From the IMG/VR virus record IMGVR_UViG_3300022554_000003: DNA of 64,000 bases; one strand, given 5' to 3'. Position 1 is the first letter of the stretch; each line of letters opens with the position of its first letter. Position numbers and translations under genes: made by a program. The stretch comes from a virus. Below the pieces are notes generated by a model. That model was not told where the DNA came from. It saw nothing but the letters and a program-made list of their open reading frames with translations, and made no database searches. Below are positions 2,266 to 49,851 of this stretch, piece after piece.

Positions 2266-2508
2266 ATGAGTTTTGTAGAAATAATTTTAAAAAATCTTTC
2301 ATCAAAAAAGTTCTTTGCATGTTTGTTCAGTATTCTTGTCCTTGGAATAATGGGCATATGGTGTCTTTATAAACTTCCAGATAATTTAGCAACACAAGCA
2401 TTTGGTGGTGTAGTTTTTGCTATCACAGCAGTGTTCACTGCTTTTTGTACAGGTAATGTCATAGGAGACCATTATGGCAAAAGCAGTGCAGATAATGGGA
2501 GTAAATAA
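2266..2508 (+). CDS. Small membrane protein (2 predicted TM helices)
   Basis: SD GGAGGG upstream. Hydrophobic stretches FFACLFSILVLGIMGIWCLY and GGVVFAITAVFTAFCTGNVIG. Confidence 0.6.
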   Translation: MSFVEIILKNLSSKKFFACLFSILVLGIMGIWCLYKLPDNLATQAFGGVVFAITAVFTAFCTGNVIGDHYGKSSADNGSK

Positions 2509-3479
2509 TGGCAATAAAGAAAATTGATAGGACATCAATACAAGATGATGACAAACAAGAATATTTCGACCCAATGTGGGGTGGAGTTTATATTGGTGCT
2601 TTTGATATTGTGACTATCGAATGGGATGCAGAACCAAATGCTGATAGCTATAATGTTTATTTTAGTATGTTCCCATTATATAGGTATAAAGTTAATCGTG
2701 ACCGAATAACAACAAATCAACTGAAATTCAAATTGCCAATATATCCACAAAACATGCACTTTTATTTTTGGGTATCGAAGGTCGTTGGTGGGGTTGAGAC
2801 TTTTATAAACGAAAGCGGTGAAACATTCTATGATGTAAGCAAAAGAAATTTTATGGAAGAGACTGAAAGTCCTATTACTCCAAGTTTTGTATTTCCAGAG
2901 ACTGATAACATAAATAGCTCAATGAAGTATGTTATTACTGAACTTATTCCAGCTGAGGTAAAATTTGTTCTCGAAAATGATGGTACAACTTGCGATGTAT
3001 ATATGAGAAGATGGGGCAGTGATAGTCCATTTGGCATACCATGCGCTTGTACAGATAAAAGTGATGCTAATGCTGACTTTCGTGGAAGTGATAGATGTAA
3101 TCTTTGTTTTGGGACTGGCATTGTTGGAGGATATTATCCTCCTATAAAAATGACCATAAGATTTAATATGATGCCAGCAAAAGATTTTAAAGGTACTTTG
3201 GCTGGATTGAAGGTATCCCAGACATACGATGGATGGACGGTCCCAGATCCAATTTTAAGGGTTGGGGATATGATAGTAAGAAGACTTGATGGCGAACGAT
3301 ATGAGGTAAAAGAAGTGAAAGTTAGTGCTCCAAGAGATGTTGCGACAAGACAGGACATTAAGTTTGATTTGATACATTTGATGGATATAAGAAGAATTGT
3401 TTCTGTTGACACAATAAACGCGGCTTTGGCCAAGACAGCAGATTCAAGATATAACCCTCAAGGAAGGAGCAACTTCTAA
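2508..3479 (+). CDS. Hypothetical virion-associated protein with FN3-like N-terminal segment and Cys cluster
   Basis: TAATG overlap with the upstream gene. IEWDAEPNADSYNVYFS is FN3-like. CACTD...CNLCFGTG is a 4-Cys cluster. Confidence 0.65.
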   Translation: MAIKKIDRTSIQDDDKQEYFDPMWGGVYIGAFDIVTIEWDAEPNADSYNVYFSMFPLYRYKVNRDRITTNQLKFKLPIYPQNMHFYFWVSKVVGGVETFINESGETFYDVSKRNFMEETESPITPSFVFPETDNINSSMKYVITELIPAEVKFVLENDGTTCDVYMRRWGSDSPFGIPCACTDKSDANADFRGSDRCNLCFGTGIVGGYYPPIKMTIRFNMMPAKDFKGTLAGLKVSQTYDGWTVPDPILRVGDMIVRRLDGERYEVKEVKVSAPRDVATRQDIKFDLIHLMDIRRIVSVDTINAALAKTADSRYNPQGRSNF

Positions 3480-4141
3480 TGCCAAGTGGAGTATATGTAA
3501 GAAGTTTAAAAACTATAGAAAAATTATCAAAAATTTCTGAAATTACTAAGAACTCCAAAGGAAAGCATTGGAAATGGTCGGAAGATGCTAAATTAAAATT
3601 TTATCCATTTAGAAAAAAAATGATAGGAAAAGAAAATCCATTTTATGGTAAAAGGCATAGTGAAGATACTAAAAATAAAATGAGATTAGCTAAAGAAAAA
3701 AAACCTACAAAATATTGGTTTGGAAAACATAGGTCGTTAGATACAAAAAGAAAACTTTCAAATGCAATGAAAGAAAAACTTAAAAATCCAGATTTTGCAA
3801 AAAAAATAGCTCAAAACTTTTTAAATGGTAAACCAAAATTATTTGATACAAAGCCAGAAATTATAATGTACGAAGCCTTACTCAAAGAATGTTATTTGGT
3901 AATCAAACAGCATTATGTAAAGGACGTAGGGTTCTGTGACTTCTGTTTGCCAGAGCACAACATAATAATTGAAGTGGATGGAAACTATTGGCATAATTTA
4001 CCAAAACAAAAAAAGAAAGATGAATATAGAAACAACAAATTAAAAGAGCTTGGGTATAAAGTTATAAGATTTTGGGAAGATGAAATATATAATGATATGG
4101 ATAAATGTATTAAAACAATTAAGGAGAACAAACATGGCTAA
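3479..4141 (+). CDS. Free-standing homing endonuclease (NUMOD3 repeats + Vsr/DUF559-like PD-(D/E)xK nuclease domain)
   Basis: Three basic repeats (GKHWKWSEDAKLK, GKRHSEDTKNKMRLAK, GKHRSLDTKRKLSNAMK). C-terminal IIIEVDGNYWH...LGYKVIRFWEDEI is clearly paralogous to the endonuclease inside the DnaE intein at 47.1-47.8 kb. Confidence 0.75.
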   Translation: MPSGVYVRSLKTIEKLSKISEITKNSKGKHWKWSEDAKLKFYPFRKKMIGKENPFYGKRHSEDTKNKMRLAKEKKPTKYWFGKHRSLDTKRKLSNAMKEKLKNPDFAKKIAQNFLNGKPKLFDTKPEIIMYEALLKECYLVIKQHYVKDVGFCDFCLPEHNIIIEVDGNYWHNLPKQKKKDEYRNNKLKELGYKVIRFWEDEIYNDMDKCIKTIKENKHG

Positions 4142-4685
4142 CTTCGAGCTGGCAATTCCTAAAGTTCTTAATGTAGAAGGTGGATATGTAAATAATCCTA
4201 CTGACAAAGGTGGGGAAACGAATTTTGGAATCACAATTAAAAAAGCAAGAGAACATGGCTACAAAGGAGAAATGAAAGATTTAACTTTGGATTTTGTAAA
4301 GCAGATTTATAAAGAAGATTATTGGGATGTTTTGAAGCTCGATCAGATGAATAGTCAAATGCTTGCAGAGATTTTATTTGATTTTGGAGTGAATTGTGGT
4401 ACTGGGACTGCATGCAGGGCTGTTCAAAGAACGTTGAATCTTTTGAATAGAAATGCTATTAGCTGGCTTGATATGATAGTAGATGGGGTAATGGGCTCAA
4501 AAACAATGTCAATAATTAATAGTCTTTCCCCTGCTGACACACTATATACGGCGAAAGTTGTAATAGGACTACAATTTGAACGGTATGTAAAAATAGTAGA
4601 GGCTGACTCAACACAAGAAACTTTTTTTAGAGGATGGGTAAATCGTGTTGGAAAGCAACTACAAAAATTAAATGGAGTGGCGTGA
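4134..4685 (+). CDS. Endolysin, GH108-like lysozyme N-domain + PG_binding_3-like C-domain
   Basis: Start moved to ATG 4134 (SD AAGGAG 7 nt upstream). Motif VLNVEGGYVNNPTDKGGETNFGIT and C-terminal FFRGWVNRV. Confidence 0.8.
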   Translation: MANFELAIPKVLNVEGGYVNNPTDKGGETNFGITIKKAREHGYKGEMKDLTLDFVKQIYKEDYWDVLKLDQMNSQMLAEILFDFGVNCGTGTACRAVQRTLNLLNRNAISWLDMIVDGVMGSKTMSIINSLSPADTLYTAKVVIGLQFERYVKIVEADSTQETFFRGWVNRVGKQLQKLNGVA

Positions 4686-4822
4686 TGTTATATTTCATCT
4701 GTGGATTAATTGTTGGAGTTATTATTGGAGTTGTTATAGCACAAAAAAAGTCAGAAAAGCCAATGAGTTCAGTTACGGCAATGATAGCAAGTGACACGGT
4801 TAAAAGGGCGTTTTATAAATGA
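4685..4822 (+). CDS. Small single-TM protein next to the endolysin (holin/lysis accessory candidate)
   Basis: ATG 4685 overlaps the lysin stop (GTGATG). MLYFICGLIVGVIIGVVIAQKK is one TM helix followed by a charged tail. Confidence 0.45.
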   Translation: MLYFICGLIVGVIIGVVIAQKKSEKPMSSVTAMIASDTVKRAFYK

Positions 4823-5001
4823 AAGTAATAATTAAAAAAAATATAGTCAGCAGAATAACCGGGGATGTATTGCCAAAAGAAGCAGAATGTAAAGTTCAAG
4901 AAAAACATCAAAAAAAGTTCTTAGTATTTTACGACAATAAGAGTTGGTTTGTTGATAAAAAAGATGTTAAGTCGAAAGGAGATGGTGGCAATGTCAAGTG
5001 A
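4819..5001 (+). CDS. Hypothetical small protein
   Basis: ATGA overlap with the upstream ORF. 60 aa. Confidence 0.45.
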   Translation: MKVIIKKNIVSRITGDVLPKEAECKVQEKHQKKFLVFYDNKSWFVDKKDVKSKGDGGNVK

Positions 5002-5443
5002 TATAAAACTTTATAAAGAAAAAGAAAAAATTAAGATTCAGAGAGAGAAGATAAAGAATGCTAAAATGATTGGTGAAGTTATTAAAGTTTATTTAGATAA
5101 CTTTAAATATCTTATTACAATTATTGTCACTGTGCTCGTCACATTAGCAAATCTTGGGTGGATAACTTATGGAACTATGCACAAACCAAAGCTTGCAATG
5201 TTGGAATCTTCATCTAATATTGTTGGTAATGAGCTTGATGAAACAGTTGGGGCAGTTGTGGCATCTACATCAAATGTTGGAATGACAATACAAGATTTTC
5301 TTATTAACAGTGGTAAAGTTGGAGCTATATTGTTTAACATAGGATTAATAGTCCTTGCATTATATTTTAGAAAGAAAGACAAAGAAAAAAAAGCGAAGAA
5401 GGAAGCCGATGCTAAAAACCCAAATTCGAAAATTATTGCTTGA
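4991..5443 (+). CDS. Membrane protein with 2 TM helices and lysine-rich tail (holin candidate)
   Basis: Start moved to ATG 4991 (SD AAGGAG 9 nt upstream). TM segments ITIIVTVLVTLANLGWITYG and VGAILFNIGLIVLALYF. Confidence 0.5.
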   Translation: MSSDIKLYKEKEKIKIQREKIKNAKMIGEVIKVYLDNFKYLITIIVTVLVTLANLGWITYGTMHKPKLAMLESSSNIVGNELDETVGAVVASTSNVGMTIQDFLINSGKVGAILFNIGLIVLALYFRKKDKEKKAKKEADAKNPNSKIIA

Positions 5444-5651
5444 TGGAAAAACAGACGAAGAGATTGTGAGTGAGCTTTCTCCAGGCATAAATTTATCTCC
5501 ACAAAGAGATAAAGTTTTCTGGCAAAATCCTCCAAGAATAATGAAACCAACTTTATATTATAATAAATATCCTGGCTTTAAAAGATGGAAGGAGAAGGGT
5601 AGACATGGAGTCACAAGAGATAGAAACCAAGGGCACTATTACTCCACATAA
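5409..5651 (+). CDS. Hypothetical protein (uncertain)
   Basis: ATG 5409 with a GAAGGAAG box upstream. Overlaps both neighbours. LLLDGKTDEEIVSEL is weakly HTH-like. Confidence 0.3.
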   Translation: MLKTQIRKLLLDGKTDEEIVSELSPGINLSPQRDKVFWQNPPRIMKPTLYYNKYPGFKRWKEKGRHGVTRDRNQGHYYST

Positions 5652-5868
5652 AAAATGGCTTTACATTGCTAAAGTACTTACTGGATGTCAAAGTTGTGTA
5701 TATATAAGAAAAGAAATGAAAGAGTTATGCTGTCATCATCCAAAGTTTATGTTAGCACCACCTTTTAAGAAAGTTATAACAAAAGATAATGTTATGGCAG
5801 TTGAGATTCCAATATGGTGTCCATTACCGAATAAAAAGGAGGATTTATATGCCAGCTCCAACAGCTAA
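5605..5868 (+). CDS. Cys-rich small protein
   Basis: SD AAGGAG upstream. CQSC...CCHH...WCP suggests metal binding. Confidence 0.5.
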   Translation: MESQEIETKGTITPHKKWLYIAKVLTGCQSCVYIRKEMKELCCHHPKFMLAPPFKKVITKDNVMAVEIPIWCPLPNKKEDLYASSNS

Positions 5869-6133
5869 TGTAATTGCAGCAAATATAGAAGCAGCTTTTA
5901 TTGCTAATGGTTTGGTGAAATATGTATTTAATAACAGTGGGGTTCCAGTTCCAACAACAGAACTTACACCAGAGCAACAAAAGATGATAAAAGCTATAGC
6001 GGAAGGCATAAGTCTTACTTGGTCGCAGTGGCAACAAACACAAGTTGTTCAGGCTTTAAGTACTACTCCTGGGAGTCCTATAGCCCCAATCGTAGTTCCA
6101 ACGCCACCTGGATACTTGCCATATTTACCATAG
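5849..6133 (+). CDS. Hypothetical protein
   Basis: Start moved to ATG 5849 (SD AAAGGAGG 7 nt upstream). Confidence 0.6.
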   Translation: MPAPTANVIAANIEAAFIANGLVKYVFNNSGVPVPTTELTPEQQKMIKAIAEGISLTWSQWQQTQVVQALSTTPGSPIAPIVVPTPPGYLPYLP

Positions 6134-6157
6134 TTATTTTTTCATATTTAATAAATA
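6131..6157 (+). promoter_or_regulatory. Recurrent motif TAGTTATTTTTTCATATTTAATAAATA (candidate phage-specific promoter)
   Basis: Related to the copies at 303, 20540, 56761 and 57756. Its TAG is the stop codon of the upstream gene. Confidence 0.35.
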
Positions 6158-6176
6158 AAAGAGAACAATAGGAGCT

Positions 6177-6821
6177 ATGATGGTACAAGGACCAGTAGAA
6201 ACAATTAAGCCAGTTGTACAGGCAGGTCGTACTCCTTTAGAATTAAGGAGCCTTACATATTTGTATTTTTTCGGCATTAAAAAGGCTTTTGTTGATGCTT
6301 TAAGAGTTGGGTTTGGTCATGAAAGTACACCATTAAGATATAGATATTCTGATAACAGTGAAAAAACTCAAATTCATATTTATAGAAACTTTCCAAAACG
6401 AGTGGATAAACTTCCAGCATTGATAGTTGAATCTGAAGGTGGAGATGCTGGCATTTCGTTTCTTGGAGATGAGTTTCTTTCTGAAGTAGAAGAAAATGGA
6501 AAAGTTTATTATCGTTATGGTGGTATTCTTACACTTAACATAAATATACATATTATGGCAAAAAGTGTTGTTGATTTAGAACAGTTGATGTCTTATGTGT
6601 CTCTTTACATGCGTTATGTATTTCAGGAGAAATTCTTCGAAAACAATCTTACATTTAATAAAATAAACATTAAACCTGAAACTGTAGTTGATGTAGATGG
6701 CAGTGATGTTTATCAAGCAACAATTAGTACAAAGGTCACAACCAATTTTGAGAACAACATTGATAGAGACCTTGTATATCATGTGCAGCAAATGCAATTG
6801 AATATTGAGGCTGGTATATGA
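6177..6821 (+). CDS. Hypothetical protein; possible tail completion/terminator-type protein (positional guess)
   Basis: SD TAGGAG upstream. Lies just upstream of the sheath gene. No diagnostic motif. Confidence 0.6.
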   Translation: MMVQGPVETIKPVVQAGRTPLELRSLTYLYFFGIKKAFVDALRVGFGHESTPLRYRYSDNSEKTQIHIYRNFPKRVDKLPALIVESEGGDAGISFLGDEFLSEVEENGKVYYRYGGILTLNINIHIMAKSVVDLEQLMSYVSLYMRYVFQEKFFENNLTFNKINIKPETVVDVDGSDVYQATISTKVTTNFENNIDRDLVYHVQQMQLNIEAGI

Positions 6822-7048
6822 TAAAGTTTAAAGTTAAGGTAAGAATAAATGGTACAGTAAAGTATCACGGTAGAGAGCTTAGACATAATGAAATTGTAAA
6901 TGAATATGATACAGAACTTCTTCAACTTGTTGAGCAAAAATTAATAAAAGTTGAAAGAATAGAAATTGATGAAATAAAACAAGCAATGAAAGATGAAAAG
7001 AAAAAGAAAAATAAAGATTTTGGCATTAAACTGCCAGAATTAGATTAA
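6818..7048 (+). CDS. Hypothetical small protein
   Basis: ATGA overlap with the upstream gene. K-rich C-terminus. Confidence 0.55.
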   Translation: MIKFKVKVRINGTVKYHGRELRHNEIVNEYDTELLQLVEQKLIKVERIEIDEIKQAMKDEKKKKNKDFGIKLPELD

Positions 7049-7060
7049 AGGAGGTTTAAA

Positions 7061-8929
7061 ATGAACATTGCACCGTTGTACGTACAGCCAGGGGCTTATT
7101 TTAAAATTGAGGATGTTTCTGCTCCGTTGGTTTCTCCTGGGGCTTTTTATCCTTTATTTGTAGGTCTCGGAAGAAAGGAACTTGATGTGTTAAAGGTTCT
7201 TACAAGAGGAACAACAGTTAATGGGCAAGATTTACTTACAGACGATGAAATAGTAATATCTCTGTTGAGTGTAATTGACTCAACTGGAGTTGTGTATATC
7301 AATGGTACAGACTTCAAGTTGACAGAAACTGGTGGTTCTTACTATGTAGATTGGAATATGCCGCAAAGCATTGTCGGTTCAGAGGTTGGCCCATTTGATG
7401 TGACAGCAACAAACAACACTATAAAAATAAATATTGATGGAGAAGAACAAACTATTTCTCTTACAGCTGGGATTGGAAGAACAGCGGCTCAAATTGCAAC
7501 TGATATTAATAATATAATGAATCCACTTCTTAGTTATAATGTTGCATCTGATGATGGTACTGGGAAATTAAAGCTTACAGGAAAACTTCTTGTAATGATT
7601 GAAGGTGGTTCTTCTCTTTCACTGCTTGGGTTTACAAAAGGCCAAAAGATAGAATCAAAAGAACCAGTGGCTGGAACTAAGTTTACTGTTGGATATAAAA
7701 GACACAAGAAAACTACAGAATATGTTCAAAAGTTCTTCACAAGATTGGAAGATGTTTATGCTGAATATGGACCACTTCAACTTCCGAATGAAATAGCGGC
7801 TGGAACAGTGACGGCGGTTTCTACTGGTGCAAATTTGGTGGACTCAAGTGCAACATTTATTACTAATGGAGTTAGACCAGGTTATTATGTGAAGATAACA
7901 AATGGGACTGGCGAAGGACAAATCAGAGTTGTGCAGACTGTTGCGAGCGAAACGGAACTTACGTTCTATCCAAACTGGGATGAAAATCCTGACACAACTT
8001 CTGAATATGTTGTCAATGATATCGGAAACTATGATATCTCTTGGGCTTGTTTCTACGCGAATCAAGGTGGTGCTCAAGCATTTGTCACTAGTCAGACAAT
8101 CGATGACGTTGTTGATGATAACAATTGGAGAAAGGCAATACAAAATACTGAGCAGTTAGTAAATGGTCAGCAAGGATATTGCTTAGTTGTTCTCAAAGGT
8201 CTTGACTTTGGAGATTCACTCGTCGGCTACATCAAGAATTATGTAGCAAAAATGAACTCCACAGTTGTCAATCAAGAGCGAACAGCTTTAATTGGAGTTG
8301 CGTCAAATATAACTTTCAGTAATGTACTTCAGTTAATTTCTGGAATACAAGATGAAAGAATTGGAGTTGTTGTAAATCCATATGTTAAGAACGGTACTAA
8401 CATCTTCGGCACTGAATATCTCGCTGCTTATATAGCTGGAGTATTTACAAATCCAGATTACGATGCCGGTGAGCCAATATCAGGCAAAATAGTTTCAGCT
8501 TTTGATTACATCGATGACCCATATTTGATGAATGAAAAGAGGCTTATAGGTCAAAACGGAGGTATACTTGTTCAGCAAGATGGAGCAGTGCAGAAGATAG
8601 TTCACTTCTTGTCCACGGACACAACAAGTGTAGTTAAATCTGAACTTAAGGTTGCTAAACAGAAAGATTCGCTTAAAAAGTCTATAAGAAAGAATCTTCA
8701 GGCTTCAATAGTAAATACAAGGTCTCAAGATATAACAATACCAAGAACAGAATCAATTGTGAGAATGATTCTTGAGGACAAAGTAAGAATCACAGAGATA
8801 AATACTTTCAAGAAGTTAGGAGTTGCATTCGAACCAAATGACCCAAGGCAGCTAAATGTATCCTTTGAATTTAAACCAACATTTGATGTTGACTGGATAC
8901 TAGTGACCTTTGGAGCAACAATATCCTAA
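7061..8929 (+). CDS. Tail sheath protein
   Basis: 622 aa, strong SD. N-terminal QPGAYFKIEDVS resembles the sheath PGVY motif. Followed by the tube, chaperone and tape measure genes in canonical order. Confidence 0.7.
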   Translation: MNIAPLYVQPGAYFKIEDVSAPLVSPGAFYPLFVGLGRKELDVLKVLTRGTTVNGQDLLTDDEIVISLLSVIDSTGVVYINGTDFKLTETGGSYYVDWNMPQSIVGSEVGPFDVTATNNTIKINIDGEEQTISLTAGIGRTAAQIATDINNIMNPLLSYNVASDDGTGKLKLTGKLLVMIEGGSSLSLLGFTKGQKIESKEPVAGTKFTVGYKRHKKTTEYVQKFFTRLEDVYAEYGPLQLPNEIAAGTVTAVSTGANLVDSSATFITNGVRPGYYVKITNGTGEGQIRVVQTVASETELTFYPNWDENPDTTSEYVVNDIGNYDISWACFYANQGGAQAFVTSQTIDDVVDDNNWRKAIQNTEQLVNGQQGYCLVVLKGLDFGDSLVGYIKNYVAKMNSTVVNQERTALIGVASNITFSNVLQLISGIQDERIGVVVNPYVKNGTNIFGTEYLAAYIAGVFTNPDYDAGEPISGKIVSAFDYIDDPYLMNEKRLIGQNGGILVQQDGAVQKIVHFLSTDTTSVVKSELKVAKQKDSLKKSIRKNLQASIVNTRSQDITIPRTESIVRMILEDKVRITEINTFKKLGVAFEPNDPRQLNVSFEFKPTFDVDWILVTFGATIS

Positions 8930-43930: not shown

Positions 43931-44569
43931 ATGAGTGGATTGAATCCAGAGAATAAATGTGTTCAATTAGTTGTTGAGGCTGCAAGGGTGCAGTACGATA
44001 AAGATGCATTGAACATAATGATGAATATGCAATACGAGCTCCAGAAGTTTTATGCAAAAAAAAGAGGTTCAATTACTCCAGACCACACCAATAAAGACCG
44101 TATCAAAGAGGCTCTCTATCATTTCAATTGTTATGTAGCCGAGATATGGGAACTACAGGAAAGAATTAATAATGGAATAAAATCAGAAGAAGATTGTATT
44201 GAGTTGAAATTTGAAGCGATAGATGCTTGGCATTTCTTTATGAATATGTTTTTGTACCTTGGTATAAGGAAATTTGATGAGGATCTTGATTTTTATTGGA
44301 CATCTGTTGGCGAACCATCAGATTATAGATTAACACTTAATTGTATAGTAACAGAATGGGGTCATGTTCTTGATGAATTACCTTATAAATATTGGAAGAC
44401 TTATGAGAATTATGATTTTAATGCAAAACGTGTGGAGAAGCTTATGGAGAGCATGCTGTGTTCATTTATATCGTTGTGCAAGTTTGTAAAAATAACAAAA
44501 GAGGAATTCTACTCATATTATATTGCCAAGAATAGGGAGAATTATGACAGGCAAAAGAGGGGTTATTGA
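43931..44569 (+). CDS. All-alpha NTP pyrophosphohydrolase (dimeric dUTPase/dCTPase, MazG-like)
   Basis: YVAEIWELQE, FEAIDAWHFFMNMF and YKYWKTY resemble dUTPase_2 motifs. Confidence 0.5.
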   Translation: MSGLNPENKCVQLVVEAARVQYDKDALNIMMNMQYELQKFYAKKRGSITPDHTNKDRIKEALYHFNCYVAEIWELQERINNGIKSEEDCIELKFEAIDAWHFFMNMFLYLGIRKFDEDLDFYWTSVGEPSDYRLTLNCIVTEWGHVLDELPYKYWKTYENYDFNAKRVEKLMESMLCSFISLCKFVKITKEEFYSYYIAKNRENYDRQKRGY

Positions 44570-47500
44570 TGTCGAATTACGTCAGCCTTCACAATCACGA
44601 TACATTCTCAGTTCTTGATGGAATGTATCGACCAATTAAGTATTTAGAGAAAGCAAAATTACTTGGAATGAAAGCATATGCTCAAACAAATCATGGCAAC
44701 ATGAGTGGTGCGTTTGAGTTCTATGATGCTGCAAAACGAGTCGGGATTAAACCAATCTTGGGTGTTGAAGCATATTTTGTCAATGACATGACAATCAAAA
44801 GTAAAGATGCAGAAAAGAACAAACATATAATTCTGCTTGCGAAGAATGAAGCTGGGTATAGGAAGCTTCTTAAAGCTCAATATGATGCTGTCAAAGTTGG
44901 TTTTTATTATAAACCAAGAATTGATTGGACTGTTCTTGAATATCTCAAGGGCGATGTTATAGTATCAAGTGCTTGTATTAGTGGAATTATAGCCCGATAT
45001 GTAGATAATGCTCTTAACAAAGGAAATGAAAGTGATAGAGACACTAGTGGTCAAATGGATATAGCCATTAAGAATGCAGAACGTCTCAAGAAAATGTTTG
45101 GTGATGACTTTTATTTTGAATATATTGCTCTAGAGCGAACAAAAGTTTATGGACCAGTTTGGAGTAAAATGCAGGAGATAGCCAAAAGCTTAAAGATTAA
45201 AAGTATAATAACAATTGACACTCATTATCTTTCAAGGGAAGATGCTGAGCTTCAAGATATAATACATAACGTTGACAATAATTTTACAATGGAAGATATT
45301 AAAAAAGGCAAAGGTTGGGTATTTGATGATAGAGATGTTTATCTTAAATCTTATGACGAAGTTAAATCAATTATGACCAAAGTATTTAATGAAGATATGG
45401 TAGACAAATTCCTGGAGAATACTTGTGAGATTGCGGACAAAATAGAAGAATTTAATATATATCCAAAAGGAGAAGTATTTCCAAAAACAAATTTTGATGA
45501 GACAAAAATTAAGACAATGTTGAAGAAGGCATTGGATACAAGAATTCCGCAGAAAAAGAGAGATAAATATGTTGCTCGTCTGAATTATGAATATAAAGTC
45601 ATAAAGCAACTTGGGTTCCTTGAATATTTTTGGATTGTTCAGGATATAGTTAACTGGGCAAAAAATAATGGTATTGAGGTTGGTGTAAGTCGTGGAAGTG
45701 CTGGTGGTTGTCTTATATCATATCTACTTGGCATAACTGAGATGGACCCAATTCGTTTTGGGCTTAGTTTTGAACGTTTCTTGAATCCAACAAGAAAAAA
45801 ACAACCTGATATCGATATAGACTTTCAGACTTCAAAACGTCAAGAAGTTTTGGCTTACATAAAGTCATACGGGGAAGAAAACACTTCACACATTCCAAAT
45901 TATGTAAACCTCACAACAAAATCAGCATTCAAGGACGTTGCTAAGGTTTATAACATTCCTTTTGCTGAGGCGAATTCTTTCAATGATAATCTTGAAGTGT
46001 ACGAAGCAGAAGGTAGAATTCCAAAAGAATTCAGACCATATTATGATAAGGCAAAGAGGCTTGAAGGAAATATTAGACATTTTGGTATTCATGCAACTGG
46101 TATAATAATGACTGATAAACCAATTTATTATTATTTGCCGGTTATATCATCGAAAGGAAATGTTATAGCAGCAATTGATGGAAAGACTTTGACTGGGAAA
46201 GGTTTTCTTAAGATTGACATATGTGGAATTGATGCTCTTGATATTATTCAATTGACAAAAAAATATATTAAAAAATATGAAAAGAAAGATGTTGATTTAT
46301 TAAATTTAGACCTTAAAGATGATAAGGTGCTTCAAATATTTCGTGATGGGGATACTGCGAATGTGTTTCAGTTCGAAACGCACAACTTTAGAGAACTTCT
46401 TAAAGAGGTAAATATAACCAAATTCAAAAATTTGATTGAGCTTAATGCTCTTAATCGACCAACTCCATTGTCAGTTGGCTATCATTTGGAGTATATTAAA
46501 AGGTCATGGGGTGGCGCTTACACTACTGCGAAATTACTTAAACCTCATTTAGAGTCTACATATGGATTACTTTTATATCAAGAACAAATTAACAATATTC
46601 TTGCGGATTGGCTTGATATATCTATAGGTGAGGCTGACAATATTAGAAGAGATATTGAAAAGCCTGATAAAGGTTTTATGATGGTAATGGAGCCATACAA
46701 AGAAAAGTTGTATAAAAAATATGGCAAAAAAGATGTTGACGAAGCATATGAAGAGTTGGCTCAAGCAGCTGGTTATGCCTTTAACAAATGTTTAACCGGA
46801 GATACAAAAATATATAAAAAATTTGGTGGTATGCGCAAGAAAGAAACTACTATTTTGGATTTGTATAATAATACAAAAATAACTACTAATGGAACTTTAA
46901 GATATAAAAGAAACAAAAATGTACCAATGCTTTATTCATATGATGTTAATAATAATAAATTTATTTTTAATACAGTGAAAAGTATTATAGACAATGGGAT
47001 ACAAGATGTTTATGAAATTGAATTATGTTGTGGCAAAAAAATAAAAGCTACAAAAAATCATAAATTTTTAACGAATAAAGGTTGGAAAACTGTTGAAGAA
47101 ATAAATAAAGATAAAACTTTGCAAATTGCGTATAGAGGTATAAGCGATACATGGAATAAAGGATTAACAAAAGATAATGATATCAGATTAAAGAAATTGT
47201 CTGAGAGAAGAATTAGGAATAGAAATTTTTTTAAGAAATTTGGTAATCAACCGCACAATAAAGGAAAAAATAAAAATAATTATTTACCTTTAAAAGCTGT
47301 ATCAGAAAAAGCAAAAGGCAGGGTATTTAGTTTGGATGCTATAGATAAAATGAAAGAATCTGCAAAAAAAAGAGAAAGAAAAGGAAACCCGGGGAAAAGA
47401 AGTGAAGAAGTAATAAATCGTATGAGGGCAACTACAGCAAAAATGCACGTGGAAGGTAAGTTTCCGAAAAAATTTACAAAACCACATATAATGTTAATTG

Positions 47501-47814
47501 ATGCTATGAAAAAAAATAGTATTTATGATGGATTTGAAAGCGAGGTTCTTGTTGGTTTTCATTCTATAGACATAGCAAATATAAAAAGAAAAATAGCAAT
47601 TCAAGTTGACGGTGATTATTACCACGTGAATCCAGAATGGATGAAAAAACGAAATAGAAAAAAAATAGATGCTATTCAAAAAAGAAATATTGGTCAAGAT
47701 AAGTCTTGTAATACTTATTTGAAAAATAAAAAATGGATTATTTTGAGATTTTGGGCAAGTGATATTGAAAATAACATTGATGTAGTTATTAAAAAAATAA
47801 AAGAGGTGTTATGA
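44566..47814 (+). CDS. dnaE: DNA polymerase III alpha (DnaE) N-extein fused to intein N-fragment and homing endonuclease
   Basis: PHP motif SLHNHDTFSVLDG, GVSRGSAGGCLISYLLGIT, PDIDIDF, GYAFNK. Then CLTGDTKIY (Hint block A) from 46789, TKNHKF (block B), NUMOD3-like repeats and a Vsr-like nuclease. Stop at 47812-47814. Confidence 0.85.
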   Translation: MMSNYVSLHNHDTFSVLDGMYRPIKYLEKAKLLGMKAYAQTNHGNMSGAFEFYDAAKRVGIKPILGVEAYFVNDMTIKSKDAEKNKHIILLAKNEAGYRKLLKAQYDAVKVGFYYKPRIDWTVLEYLKGDVIVSSACISGIIARYVDNALNKGNESDRDTSGQMDIAIKNAERLKKMFGDDFYFEYIALERTKVYGPVWSKMQEIAKSLKIKSIITIDTHYLSREDAELQDIIHNVDNNFTMEDIKKGKGWVFDDRDVYLKSYDEVKSIMTKVFNEDMVDKFLENTCEIADKIEEFNIYPKGEVFPKTNFDETKIKTMLKKALDTRIPQKKRDKYVARLNYEYKVIKQLGFLEYFWIVQDIVNWAKNNGIEVGVSRGSAGGCLISYLLGITEMDPIRFGLSFERFLNPTRKKQPDIDIDFQTSKRQEVLAYIKSYGEENTSHIPNYVNLTTKSAFKDVAKVYNIPFAEANSFNDNLEVYEAEGRIPKEFRPYYDKAKRLEGNIRHFGIHATGIIMTDKPIYYYLPVISSKGNVIAAIDGKTLTGKGFLKIDICGIDALDIIQLTKKYIKKYEKKDVDLLNLDLKDDKVLQIFRDGDTANVFQFETHNFRELLKEVNITKFKNLIELNALNRPTPLSVGYHLEYIKRSWGGAYTTAKLLKPHLESTYGLLLYQEQINNILADWLDISIGEADNIRRDIEKPDKGFMMVMEPYKEKLYKKYGKKDVDEAYEELAQAAGYAFNKCLTGDTKIYKKFGGMRKKETTILDLYNNTKITTNGTLRYKRNKNVPMLYSYDVNNNKFIFNTVKSIIDNGIQDVYEIELCCGKKIKATKNHKFLTNKGWKTVEEINKDKTLQIAYRGISDTWNKGLTKDNDIRLKKLSERRIRNRNFFKKFGNQPHNKGKNKNNYLPLKAVSEKAKGRVFSLDAIDKMKESAKKRERKGNPGKRSEEVINRMRATTAKMHVEGKFPKKFTKPHIMLIDAMKKNSIYDGFESEVLVGFHSIDIANIKRKIAIQVDGDYYHVNPEWMKKRNRKKIDAIQKRNIGQDKSCNTYLKNKKWIILRFWASDIENNIDVVIKKIKEVL

Positions 47815-47951
47815 TGGGATTTGGTAGTAAGGAAATAATAAAATATTCAAAAATAAAAAATATAAAACATATTGGCAAAGATAGAACTTTTGATATAGAA
47901 ATGATTGATGAACCAAGAAATTTTTTAGCAAACGATATTGTATCACATAAT
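46789..47951 (+). mobile_element. DnaE intein with Vsr-like homing endonuclease, encoded across two ORFs (frame break at 47811-47814)
   Basis: Cys1 at 46789. The C-terminal fragment ends ...NDIVSHN at 47951 and is followed by the Ser+1 extein SHSCAYAY. The joined exteins restore GYAFNK-SHSCAYA. Confidence 0.8.
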
Positions 47952-48470
47952 TCGCATAGTTGTGCCTATGCTTATGTTGCATTTCAAATGGCATATCTTA
48001 AATGTTATTATCGCAAGTATTTCAATTTGGCTGTGTTGAATTCGGAAGAAAAACAAGAAAAGATAGACCGCATTATTGATGATTGTGACAAACATGGAAT
48101 ACATATTAATGCATTTAACATAAATGAAATGAGTGTTCATTTTACTATCAACAAAGATGGTGAGATAAATGCTGGGGCAAGAATTGTCAAGGGGTTGGGA
48201 GAGAGAACTATAGAAACAATTATTAAAAATAAACCATATAAAAATTTTGAAGATTTTATGAACCGTGCAAAGTCAGAAACTCCTAAAGGTGGTTTTCGTA
48301 AGATTCCAAGTAACGTTATAAAGATATTGTATGACTATGATTTTTTTGAAAATGCTTGGGGAAAAACAGAAAATAGAAAAGTCGAGGAGTATTTAGATAG
48401 TATATCAGCGGCTAAGAATAAAAAGAAAGGTGGGAAAAATAGTGCAGGAAAAACCAAAGGTGAAAGTTGA
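47811..48470 (+). CDS. dnaE: Intein C-fragment (47 aa) fused to the DnaE C-extein
   Basis: Own SD AAAGAGGTG and ATGATG overlapping the upstream stop. FDIEMIDEPRNFLANDIVSHN|SHSCAYAYVAFQMAYLKCYY. Confidence 0.8.
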   Translation: MMGFGSKEIIKYSKIKNIKHIGKDRTFDIEMIDEPRNFLANDIVSHNSHSCAYAYVAFQMAYLKCYYRKYFNLAVLNSEEKQEKIDRIIDDCDKHGIHINAFNINEMSVHFTINKDGEINAGARIVKGLGERTIETIIKNKPYKNFEDFMNRAKSETPKGGFRKIPSNVIKILYDYDFFENAWGKTENRKVEEYLDSISAAKNKKKGGKNSAGKTKGES

Positions 48471-49236: not shown

Positions 49237-49851
49237 GTGGGTAAGAAATTAACAGTCAGGAAGAGGGTAATTGTAGATGAAGGAATCTATGCAGCAAAAG
49301 TAAAGAGCATAGAGAAGAAGGATGGCAAGTTCGGTGACTATTACCAAGTGTCGTTTAAGATAACTGATGAGGAATTTGAAGGTAAAACAGTCAACGGGAA
49401 CATGCCAGCAGAAGTAGAAGTAGGCAACAAGGCTTACAAATGGGTAAGTATTTTACTTGGACGTGAACTTGAGGTTGATGAAGAATTTGACCCGGAAGAT
49501 CTTGTTGGCAAGTCTTGTAAAATAGCTGTTGAACACAATTCAAATGATGAAGGGACATTTGCAAAAGTCACAGCACTTTACAAGAAGAAAAAGAAAGATG
49601 AAGACGAAGATGAAGAAGACGATGGTAATAAAAAGAAAAAATTCAAAGATGATGATGTTGACAGAAAGAAAAAGTCTAAAGATGAAGACGAAGAAGATGA
49701 CGAAGACGAAGATGAAGATGATGTGAAGAAGAAAAAGAAAGACGATGACGAAGAAGACGAAGATGAAGACGAAGATGAAGACGAAGATGAAGACAATGAT
49801 AAGAAAAAGAAAGATGAAGACGATGATGACGACGATGAAGAATTTAAGTAA
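49237..49851 (+). CDS. Protein with compact N-domain and long D/E-K tail (possible SSB-like, speculative)
   Basis: GTG start behind AAAGGAGGT. The ~110-aa N-domain is followed by ~95 aa of KKKK/DEDEDE ending DDDDDDEEFK, reminiscent of acidic SSB tails. Confidence 0.6.
   Translation: MGKKLTVRKRVIVDEGIYAAKVKSIEKKDGKFGDYYQVSFKITDEEFEGKTVNGNMPAEVEVGNKAYKWVSILLGRELEVDEEFDPEDLVGKSCKIAVEHNSNDEGTFAKVTALYKKKKKDEDEDEEDDGNKKKKFKDDDVDRKKKSKDEDEEDDEDEDEDDVKKKKKDDDEEDEDEDEDEDEDEDNDKKKKDEDDDDDDEEFK

Follow-up and report, generated by a model that had tools for sequence, protein, structure and literature searches.

A phage DnaE intein encoded in two overlapping reading frames with a Vsr-like endonuclease fused to its N-terminal half: a variant related to fractured genes

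How an intein divided between two polypeptides can carry a homing endonuclease on one of its halves, and whether such a locus is a working gene, a decaying one or an error of assembly, is the question raised by a stretch of phage DNA of 64,000 nucleotides (IMG/VR virus record IMGVR_UViG_3300022554_000003; hereafter the window, meaning this whole stretch). In it, the dnaE gene for the alpha subunit of DNA polymerase III (Pol III) is distributed over two overlapping open reading frames (ORFs). A preliminary description, made from the letters alone, had read it as a DnaE intein split over both ORFs, with a Vsr-like endonuclease on the N-terminal intein fragment (IntN) and the C-terminal fragment (IntC) opening the second ORF, and on this the ORFs, motifs and profiles all agree. 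We consider that the locus quite probably encodes a translationally coupled, trans-splicing split intein, in which one mRNA would yield two products and a 913-aa DnaE would be formed via Cys1, Ser+1 and Asn47. Judged from its relatives, the two-ORF layout is genuine, and it is best read as the half-fused state that was implied, yet not observed, in the account of fractured genes by Dassa, London, Stoddard, Schueler-Furman and Pietrokovski (2009, PMC2677866).

The two ORFs (Table 1) together hold one polymerase. Residues 5-742 of ORF1 match the DnaE profile TIGR00594 at model positions 1-750 and residues 47-157 of ORF2 match it at positions 749-863, and since the profile is continuous over both, excision of the element would restore an unbroken polymerase, as had been proposed from the joined exteins; the empty allele P0002, which reads GYAFNKSHSCAYAY across the insertion point, speaks for the same. 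By alignment, this point lies between the equivalents of K758 and S759 of Escherichia coli Pol III alpha (FNK|SHS), and the C-extein, opening with SHSCAYAY and the Ser+1 nucleophile, aligns with the E. coli protein from S759 on. ORF1 likely starts at ATG 44569, where it overlaps the stop codon of a dUTPase_2-like ORF upstream. The cassette between the exteins (46789-47951) is a single contiguous DNA stretch of 1,163 bp from which two polypeptides are encoded; its GC content is 25.8%, against 33.0% in the exteins, and this low GC, together with the existence of empty alleles, is the signature of a mobile element.

Hint blocks are found by intein profiles in both fragments, and the motifs of the preliminary description hold at the positions it gave, from GYAFNK to the 47-aa IntC. 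The N-terminal profile TIGR01445 matches ORF1 with an E-value of 4e-9 (37.3 bits, cut-off 24.5), and PF14890 extends over both ORFs (profile 10-126 in ORF1, 118-155 in ORF2), its match to ORF2 alone (E 7e-5) lying below the Pfam gathering score; the C-terminal profile TIGR01443 scores 15.6 bits on ORF2, exactly its cut-off. The IntN region matched intein structures of DnaB, DnaE and RecA with phmmer, and IntC aligns with P0003-P0008 and with the C-terminus of the Ssp DnaB intein. All sequence features of a class-1 intein are present, namely the block A Cys, the block B TxxH, blocks F and G with His-Asn, and Ser+1. From Cys1 to the nuclease the frame of ORF1 is unbroken, with no stop, spacer or start codon at the boundary between IntN and the NUMOD repeats, and the break comes directly after the last endonuclease helix and ahead of the first IntC strand. 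This is the loop between blocks B and F into which endonucleases are inserted, in keeping with the earlier claim that the intein is broken where natural split inteins are.

The same layout recurs in relatives, all of which come from metagenome protein collections; scans of IMG/VR gave no N-fused example, one returning just the fractured locus L001 and the other none. At least four further lineages, 40-66% identical and present on dozens of contigs, have an ORF with IntN and homing endonuclease followed by an ORF with IntC, and the proteins related to ORF2 are mostly ORFs of about 200 aa that open with IntC. In an exhaustive search with the IntN-endonuclease part, the full-length matches were solely P0009, P0011 and P0013, in which the nuclease forms the C-terminus of the protein; it does so likewise in P0033, which matches the nuclease part of the query. 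The P0004 lineage (L003-L008, 53% identical) has an ORF of 998 aa for DnaE-N and the intein and one of 203 aa, overlapping by 4 nt, a layout that recurs at each of the six places shown (24 or more contigs read; the protein is indexed in 42 collection blocks). Junction sequences differ by lineage, with overlaps of 4, 17, 20 or 55 nt. The window's overlap, in gtgttATGAtggga, is a 4-nt ATGA, as in L013 and L014; L003 and L013 have AAGGAG(N5)ATGA at the start of ORF2; L009 overlaps by 17 nt; and in L010-L012 the ORF2 start (ATG 5935) stands behind AAGGAG(N8), 20 nt within ORF1. L016-L018 (P0033), which belong to an unrelated DnaE lineage and whose Hint part is 25% identical to that of the window, are also N-fused, with a 55-nt overlap. 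Separate polypeptides for IntN and IntC thus recur in an independent strain and five or more lineages, one of them unrelated to the window clade, and each relative has a Shine-Dalgarno (SD) sequence and then an ATG inside the overlap, as expected from the preliminary claim that IntC has its own translation signals.

Four other explanations of the locus have to be weighed against trans-splicing, two of which turn on the run of seven adenines (A7) just 5' of the junction. Such a run could mask a fusion of frames, and the possibility of a sequencing error, already raised in the preliminary description, was therefore tested with comparative data. The ORF2 frame is open from 47793, after a TAA at 47790-47792, and one additional A in A7, or a -1 slip at T_AAA_AAA, would merge the frames of ORF1 and ORF2; if the true sequence were A8 at 47791-47797, the locus would encode one contiguous intein, like the Vsr-type inteins known at the same site (P0036, P0106, P0119, P0124). 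L002, however, an independent strain assembled in Logan (SRR12976788) with 11 single-nucleotide differences from the window in 1839 nt, is identical to it across the nuclease tail, A7, the junction and IntC, and four more lineages keep two ORFs with unrelated junctions, homopolymer-free (as in caaataAAGGAGattctATGAag of P0004), with varied overlaps and frames, and with a stop in the ORF2 frame shortly 5' of the junction. Relative to ORF1, the frame of ORF2 is -1 in the window, L003 and L013 but +1 in L009 and L010; one common indel or slip site cannot account for all of them, and an artefact of sequencing or assembly has a nearly negligible probability. The same run might be used by the phage itself, through -1 ribosomal frameshifting or transcriptional slippage at T_AAA_AAA, to make a contiguous, cis-splicing precursor with the trans-frame peptide ...VVIKKNKRGVMMGF...; it is slippery-like, it falls in the only 18-nt stretch that permits the shift, and an SD-like element is near. 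Such recoding is very unlikely, since a slippery heptamer is missing from L003 and L013 (agacaGATAAAGGAGATTCTATGA), L009, L010 and L016, the shift needed in L009 and L010 would be +1 instead of -1, the ORF2 frame of L010 opens right at its ATG, and what every lineage conserves is the SD and the ATG.

The remaining two explanations concern the fate of the products. If a contiguous intein had been freshly broken, DnaE would be non-functional and the phage would use another polymerase; the nuclease core is indeed deleted in L003-L008, and in one of the six places of P0004 type, L008 (5009-5923 / 5986-8004), the DnaE-N ORF is called in two pieces, a polymorphic extra break that is possibly a frameshift or assembly error limited to that sample. 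Pseudogene decay is nevertheless hardly probable, because the layout is common to lineages whose exteins differ by about 50% and hence is old, and because no other replicative polymerase was found among the ORFs covered by a partial scan of the window. Between lineages, moreover, the intein is 47-66% and the extein 41-56% identical, so that the element appears to have diverged together with its host gene. The ratio of nonsynonymous to synonymous substitution rates (dN/dS) is below 1 in every segment, and well below it in the exteins and both intein halves, although dS is saturated in most inter-lineage pairs and reliable ratios come from L013 and L003 only: 0.41 for Hint-N, 0.125 for the NUMOD region (in L003 a remnant), 0.07 for IntC and 0.09 for the C-extein. 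Over pairs, the DNA-binding region of the endonuclease gives 0.125-0.37, and the nuclease core 0.13-0.38 in other pairs with dS near saturation. On these comparisons the N-fused state is old and stable in this phage clade, not transient. The halves might also serve as mere dimerization modules that hold two DnaE fragments together with no peptide bond. Phage genes broken by endonucleases can function as non-covalent complexes (Dassa et al., 2009, PMC2677866, and Aeh1 NrdA, PMC3045599), and splicing might be slowed by the bulk of an endonuclease on IntN. We hold this non-splicing assembly to be improbable, given that Cys1, Thr88/His91 (block B), the block F Asp, His46/Asn47 and Ser+1 are kept in all lineages at 40-66% identity, that dN/dS in IntC is so low, and that the break falls in the conserved, active-site-proximal FNKSHS, a place at which 388 additional residues could hardly be accommodated.

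We return to trans-splicing as the preferred explanation, which would proceed as follows. ORF2 would be initiated at its own SD and ATG in the ATGA overlap, and this placement of a start signal in a stop/start overlap suggests that both products are made from one mRNA by coupled translation: DnaE(1-741)-IntN-NUMOD-Vsr-like endonuclease, of 1082 aa, and IntC(47 aa)-DnaE(742-913), of 219 aa. IntN and IntC would pair into a complete Hint fold, Cys1 would undergo the N-S acyl shift, Ser+1 would attack the thioester, and cyclization of the terminal Asn would release the 913-aa DnaE together with a two-chain by-product, in which IntN-endonuclease stays bound to IntC. The homing endonuclease, if it is still active, probably takes the form of this by-product. 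Homing would begin with a cut in an intein-less dnaE allele during co-infection, and repair would then copy the whole 1.16-kb cassette, so the split at the protein level would cost nothing in mobility at the DNA level. Whether the half-fused state is in itself a long-lived, selected architecture, that is, a two-chain bifunctional intein whose endonuclease is expressed solely within the DnaE-IntN precursor and works as an IntN-endonuclease-IntC complex after trans-splicing, seems to us evenly balanced.

The endonuclease belongs, by its profile matches, to the Vsr-like EDxHD family (Dassa et al., 2009; Taylor, 2011), with NUMOD repeats at its N-terminal side. The nuclease domain matches TIGR00632 (Vsr; E 4e-6), DUF559 (PF04480; E 4.6e-5) and MTES_1575, which upholds the earlier reading of NUMOD3-like repeats followed by a Vsr/DUF559-like core. 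About 100 of the best matches to IntN-endonuclease are free-standing proteins of 280-330 aa that align from the WN.GLTK NUMOD motif onward, and the free-standing endonuclease of L001 aligns with the endonuclease region of the window. When the Protein Data Bank (PDB) was searched by phmmer with the single sequence, only the Hint part was matched, and kinship with Vsr emerged with a family profile of 40 free-standing relatives plus the window's domain, which found 1CW0 (Vsr; E 3.5e-6), 3R3P (I-Bth0305I; E 1.3e-4), 1VSR and 3HRL (DUF559). The catalytic equivalents are Asp261 (in SIDIA) for Vsr D51, His279 (DYYH) for H69 and Asp304 (GQDKS) for D97, and a Glu is present within FESEV. The position of Vsr F62 is taken by Gln272; of 139 relatives, 98 have Glu there and the others F, Y, Q or L, and the residue is Q, F or L in the sister lineages and Phe in Vsr itself. 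A second, free-standing Vsr-like/NUMOD3 endonuclease of 220 aa is encoded elsewhere in the window (3479-4141, + strand; DUF559 E 3e-13, NUMOD3 E 1e-8). In this enzyme the canonical Glu is present (IIIEVDGNYWH), and its core is 33% identical to the intein-borne copy; the gene abuts the stop of a 323-aa ORF (2508-3479) and overlaps a GH108 endolysin ORF (4080-4685) by 62 nt, a 3' overlap with the downstream ORF such as is seen in fractured genes.

Several points weigh against the reading given above. Gln272, in place of the common Glu, is suggestive of reduced nuclease activity, although it is not decisive; we dropped it as proof of a dead nuclease, since some 30% of the family have no Glu there. 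L003-L008 (for example L003, 5008-8004) have lost the whole nuclease core of about 92 aa by an in-frame deletion that spared the NUMOD region, the final residues (seven, IKEIL among them) and the junction with AAGGAG and ATGA; host function can therefore do without the nuclease, which may be decaying. Because of the Gln at the common Glu position and of this deletion in a sister lineage, the chance that the endonuclease is still active in the window phage appears to be about even. A7, in the window lineage alone, would permit some frameshifted contiguous precursor, and the saturation of dS limits what can be drawn from the substitution rates. The fold was modelled with AlphaFold2 (AF2) on IntN-endonuclease artificially joined to IntC, from an alignment of 61 rows; a single-sequence AlphaFold run was uninformative (predicted local distance difference test, pLDDT, 33). 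The joined model has a mean pLDDT of 88.3, with Hint-N above 90, the nuclease core at 95-98 and IntC at 93-97, and confidence drops at the artificial join (residues 341-350) and in the NUMOD linkers, which are flexible. IntC is packed on IntN, and in Foldseek comparison with whole mini-inteins the model resembles 1MI8 (TMt 0.88), 6FRG (0.80), the NrdJ-1 split intein (0.78) and Ssp DnaE (0.75). According to this model the halves are compatible with one Hint fold, but a model of a fused chain speaks for their compatibility and not for their association in trans. Pairing of basic IntC with acidic IntN strands, considered as a mark of trans-association, was rejected; the charge complementarity exists, yet it does not discriminate split from contiguous relatives, which pair too with opposite polarity. 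Finally, trans-splicing, coupled initiation and DNA cleavage by the endonuclease are what we infer from sequence.

Among known systems, the closest are the fractured genes, in which IntN ends at a stop codon and is followed by a non-coding spacer of 27-51 nt and a free-standing endonuclease gene, whose 3' end overlaps the IntC ORF by 6-69 bp at 15 of 26 loci (Dassa et al., 2009, PMC2677866). The window shares with them a phage gene of DNA metabolism, the halves of a split intein together on one strand of a single locus, and a Vsr-like endonuclease with NUMOD repeats whose 3' end overlaps the IntC ORF (here by 4 nt). It differs in that its endonuclease is not free-standing after a stop and spacer, but is carried as a domain at the C-terminus of the IntN polypeptide, without the zinc-finger-like module that the free-standing forms have at their N-terminus. 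The kinship that the preliminary description had suggested, with the endonuclease still fused, is thus borne out by the shared overlap and by the spacer at all of the published loci. These include three DnaE loci, and no half-fused locus is described; step IIIa of the scheme proposed there would place the endonuclease gene in frame by loss of its flanks (Dassa et al., 2009, PMC2677866). L001 is a fractured locus of exactly this type at the window's own insertion site. The window locus is a new variant related to fractured genes, not a new category. We found no description of a natural IntN-endonuclease fusion in the literature searched, with most subscription journals outside its coverage.

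The cyanobacterial split DnaE intein (Ssp/Npu) has in common with the window its host protein, its class-1 split, the break at the endonuclease-insertion loop and a short IntC; its halves, however, lie at distant loci (dnaE-n and dnaE-c) with no endonuclease, whereas in the window they overlap and an endonuclease is present. Its insertion site, which we take to be Y|CFNK with the native C-extein CFN and Cys at +1, would lie four residues upstream of FNK|SHS with its Ser+1. Weak profile similarity to the cyanobacterial DnaE exists (PRK07373 on ORF2 residues 14-145, PRK09532 on the IntN region), and in the PRK07373 match the model span is four residues longer than the query span, consistent with a four-residue offset between the sites. 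The window intein is not the cyanobacterial DnaE allele, in agreement with the earlier suggestion of a distinct insertion site, here placed after FNK at K758|S759; a full-text literature search for CFNKSH gave no match.

The four contiguous DnaE inteins of Vsr type share with the window the site, the order Hint-N, NUMOD, Vsr-like core and Hint-C, and a junction of Hint-N and endonuclease that has no zinc-finger module, but they are single ORFs, where in the window Hint-C is set off from the last helix of the endonuclease by a stop, an SD and an ATG. In a survey of actinophage inteins (2025, 10.1101/2025.01.02.630785), Vsr-like endonucleases are reported with split inteins only. The prototype EDxHD homing endonuclease, I-Bth0305I (Taylor, 2011, PMC3239194; PDB 3R3P), is a free-standing protein whose gene lies in a group I intron; it shares the N-terminal NUMOD-type DNA-binding region, the C-terminal Vsr fold and the Asp/His/Asp positions, while the domain of the window is covalently attached to an intein half and has Gln at the Vsr F62 position. 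The phage Aeh1 (PMC3045599) offers another essential phage gene cut in two by insertion of a homing endonuclease: NrdA is split by mobE, and its fragments reassemble after translation with neither an intein nor a peptide bond, whereas the break in the window is flanked by complete, conserved Hint blocks.

The state of the window is one of an allelic series at FNK|SHS. In a census of 61 phage DnaE loci from IMG/VR (L019-L079), the site is empty in 48 (an allele also represented by P0002), two have mini-inteins of 136-138 aa (L035, L037), and nine or ten have contiguous inteins of 252-289 aa with an HNH-type endonuclease (CxxC...HH...CNSCHKK; L019, L020, L022, L023, L038, L040, L065, and L062, which is similar but at a contig end). 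The IntC of the HNH-type inteins is clearly homologous to that of the window, which means that one Hint family at one site has been combined with at least two unrelated types of endonuclease. To these are added the contiguous inteins with an in-frame Vsr-like endonuclease, the N-fused state of the window clade and of L016-L018, the N-fused state with deleted nuclease core in L003-L008, and two further arrangements. In L001, fully fractured, IntN has 97 aa and ends at a stop; then come a gap of 62 nt, a free-standing endonuclease of 282 aa, two small ORFs and IntC. L015 (1-2728) is the mirror image, with the endonuclease fused to IntC: IntN ends at 487, a 35-nt spacer follows, the endonuclease's N-terminal part is an ORF at 523-918, and after an internal frameshift the NUMOD and nuclease core are in frame with IntC and DnaE-C (866/908-2728). 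L015 and L016 being related, both junction states differ between close lineages.

The Hint parts of the Vsr-type contiguous inteins are 27-32% identical to that of the window and cluster apart from it, and in a neighbour-joining tree of Hint parts (rough, with no support values) the window clade stands nearest a mini-intein, grouping with mini- and HNH-type inteins, apart from the contiguous Vsr-type clade and from that of L016, L015 and L001. This hints that inteins at FNK|SHS acquired a Vsr-like endonuclease more than once, and since the Hint part of the window does not group with the contiguous Vsr-type inteins, invasion of an existing intein by a free-standing endonuclease, with subsequent 5' fusion, fits no worse than the breakage of a contiguous one. 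At this dnaE site, the links between endonuclease and Hint parts have apparently been made and undone repeatedly in independent events. The suggestion of an evolutionary intermediate between a contiguous and a split intein stands as to type, with empty, fractured, contiguous and mirror alleles at the same site; in this clade, however, the layout is old and stable, not transient, and for the direction of change breakage is favoured no more than invasion with fusion.

Other insertions and breaks are found in the dnaE genes of the relatives. L010 (1431-5954) and L012 have an additional LAGLIDADG-type intein in the PHP domain of DnaE, within an ORF of 1507 aa, and L011 (17-3325, 1102 aa) does not, so the element is polymorphic for presence. 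Another contiguous intein lies at the PDIDxDF motif of DnaE in P0009 (residues ~420-700) and at the N-terminus of P0011, with the boundaries NR|CLKET...THN|SKMLDIDIDF, a site that is empty in the window; its insert has a PD-(D/E)xK-like motif (YTPDF...IELKG) and is possibly an unusual type of intein endonuclease. In L016, the PHP domain is on a separate ORF of 287 aa (4151-5014), which overlaps the next DnaE ORF (5001-8231) by 14 nt, and the polymerase of this phage may be encoded in three pieces.

Table 1. Positions of the dnaE ORFs, the intein cassette and its junction in the window
Feature	Position	Strand	Details and evidence
ORF1	44566..47814	+	1082 aa; TTG at 44566, ATG at 44569; TGA stop 47812-47814
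N-extein, DnaE (Pol III alpha) residues 1-741	44566..46788	+	PF02811, PF07733, PF17657; TIGR00594 positions 1-750; PHP, NTPase/palm and finger domains; last residues GYAFNK, to 46788
IntN, Hint N-terminal lobe, intein residues 1-117	46789..47139	+	TIGR01445, PF14890, phmmer, AF2 pLDDT >90; Cys1 within CLTGD 46789-46803; block B TKNH 47050-47061
Endonuclease DNA-binding region, in frame with IntN	47140..47481	+	NUMOD3-like repeats; alignment to free-standing endonucleases
NUMOD3-like repeats WNKGLTK, HNKGK, GNPGKR	47152..47172, 47254..47268, 47383..47400	+	read in ORF1
Vsr-like (EDxHD family) nuclease core, intein residues 232-341, and TGA stop	47482..47814	+	DUF559, MTES_1575, TIGR00632
A7 homopolymer, just 5' of junction	47791..47797	+	read from sequence; same in L002, absent at junctions of other lineages
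ORF2 translation signals	47800..47816	+	SD AAAGAGGTG 47800-47808; ATG 47811 in ATGA overlap; second ATG 47814
ORF2	47811..48470	+	219 aa; opens ATGATG; ATGs at 47811 and 47814
IntC, 47 aa, Hint C-terminal lobe	47811..47951	+	PF14890 positions 118-155; TIGR01443; block F TFDIEM 47886-47903; block G VSHN 47940-47951, penultimate His, terminal Asn
C-extein, DnaE residues 742-913, HhH domain	47952..48470	+	TIGR00594 positions 749-863; PF14579
Insertion point in element-free P0002-type sequence			between TTTAACAAA and TCGCATAGT

The window as a whole comes from an AT-rich tailed phage, with genes for baseplate J, UvsW-like and DnaB-like helicases, SbcCD and a RecA-like ATPase. The locus had no match among 50,697 GenBank phage records by megablast or blastn, so the phage has no close sequenced relative in that set. 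Just 3' of the RecA-like ATPase gene, an ORF of 204 aa (49237-49851, + strand) has a C-terminal half made up of an extreme low-complexity tract of Asp, Glu and Lys (KKKKDEDEDEEDD...).

The origin of endonucleases nested in inteins, and of split inteins themselves, has so far been argued mainly from end states. The locus described here and its relatives supply missing half-steps at one site, in that the window clade and L016 have a fused 5' and an open 3' junction and L015 has the mirror image; together with the empty, mini- and contiguous alleles, they make the direction and the reversibility of these changes accessible to phylogenetics and experiment. If true, this natural allelic series would be a direct test of how endonucleases become intein domains and of how split inteins arise. 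The clade also provides several orthologous natural pairs of split-intein halves (Cys1/Ser+1) that would tolerate a cargo of about 220 aa on IntN, which is relevant to the engineering of protein ligation. For annotation, it means that dnaE genes of this kind will as a matter of routine be miscalled as frameshifted pseudogenes.

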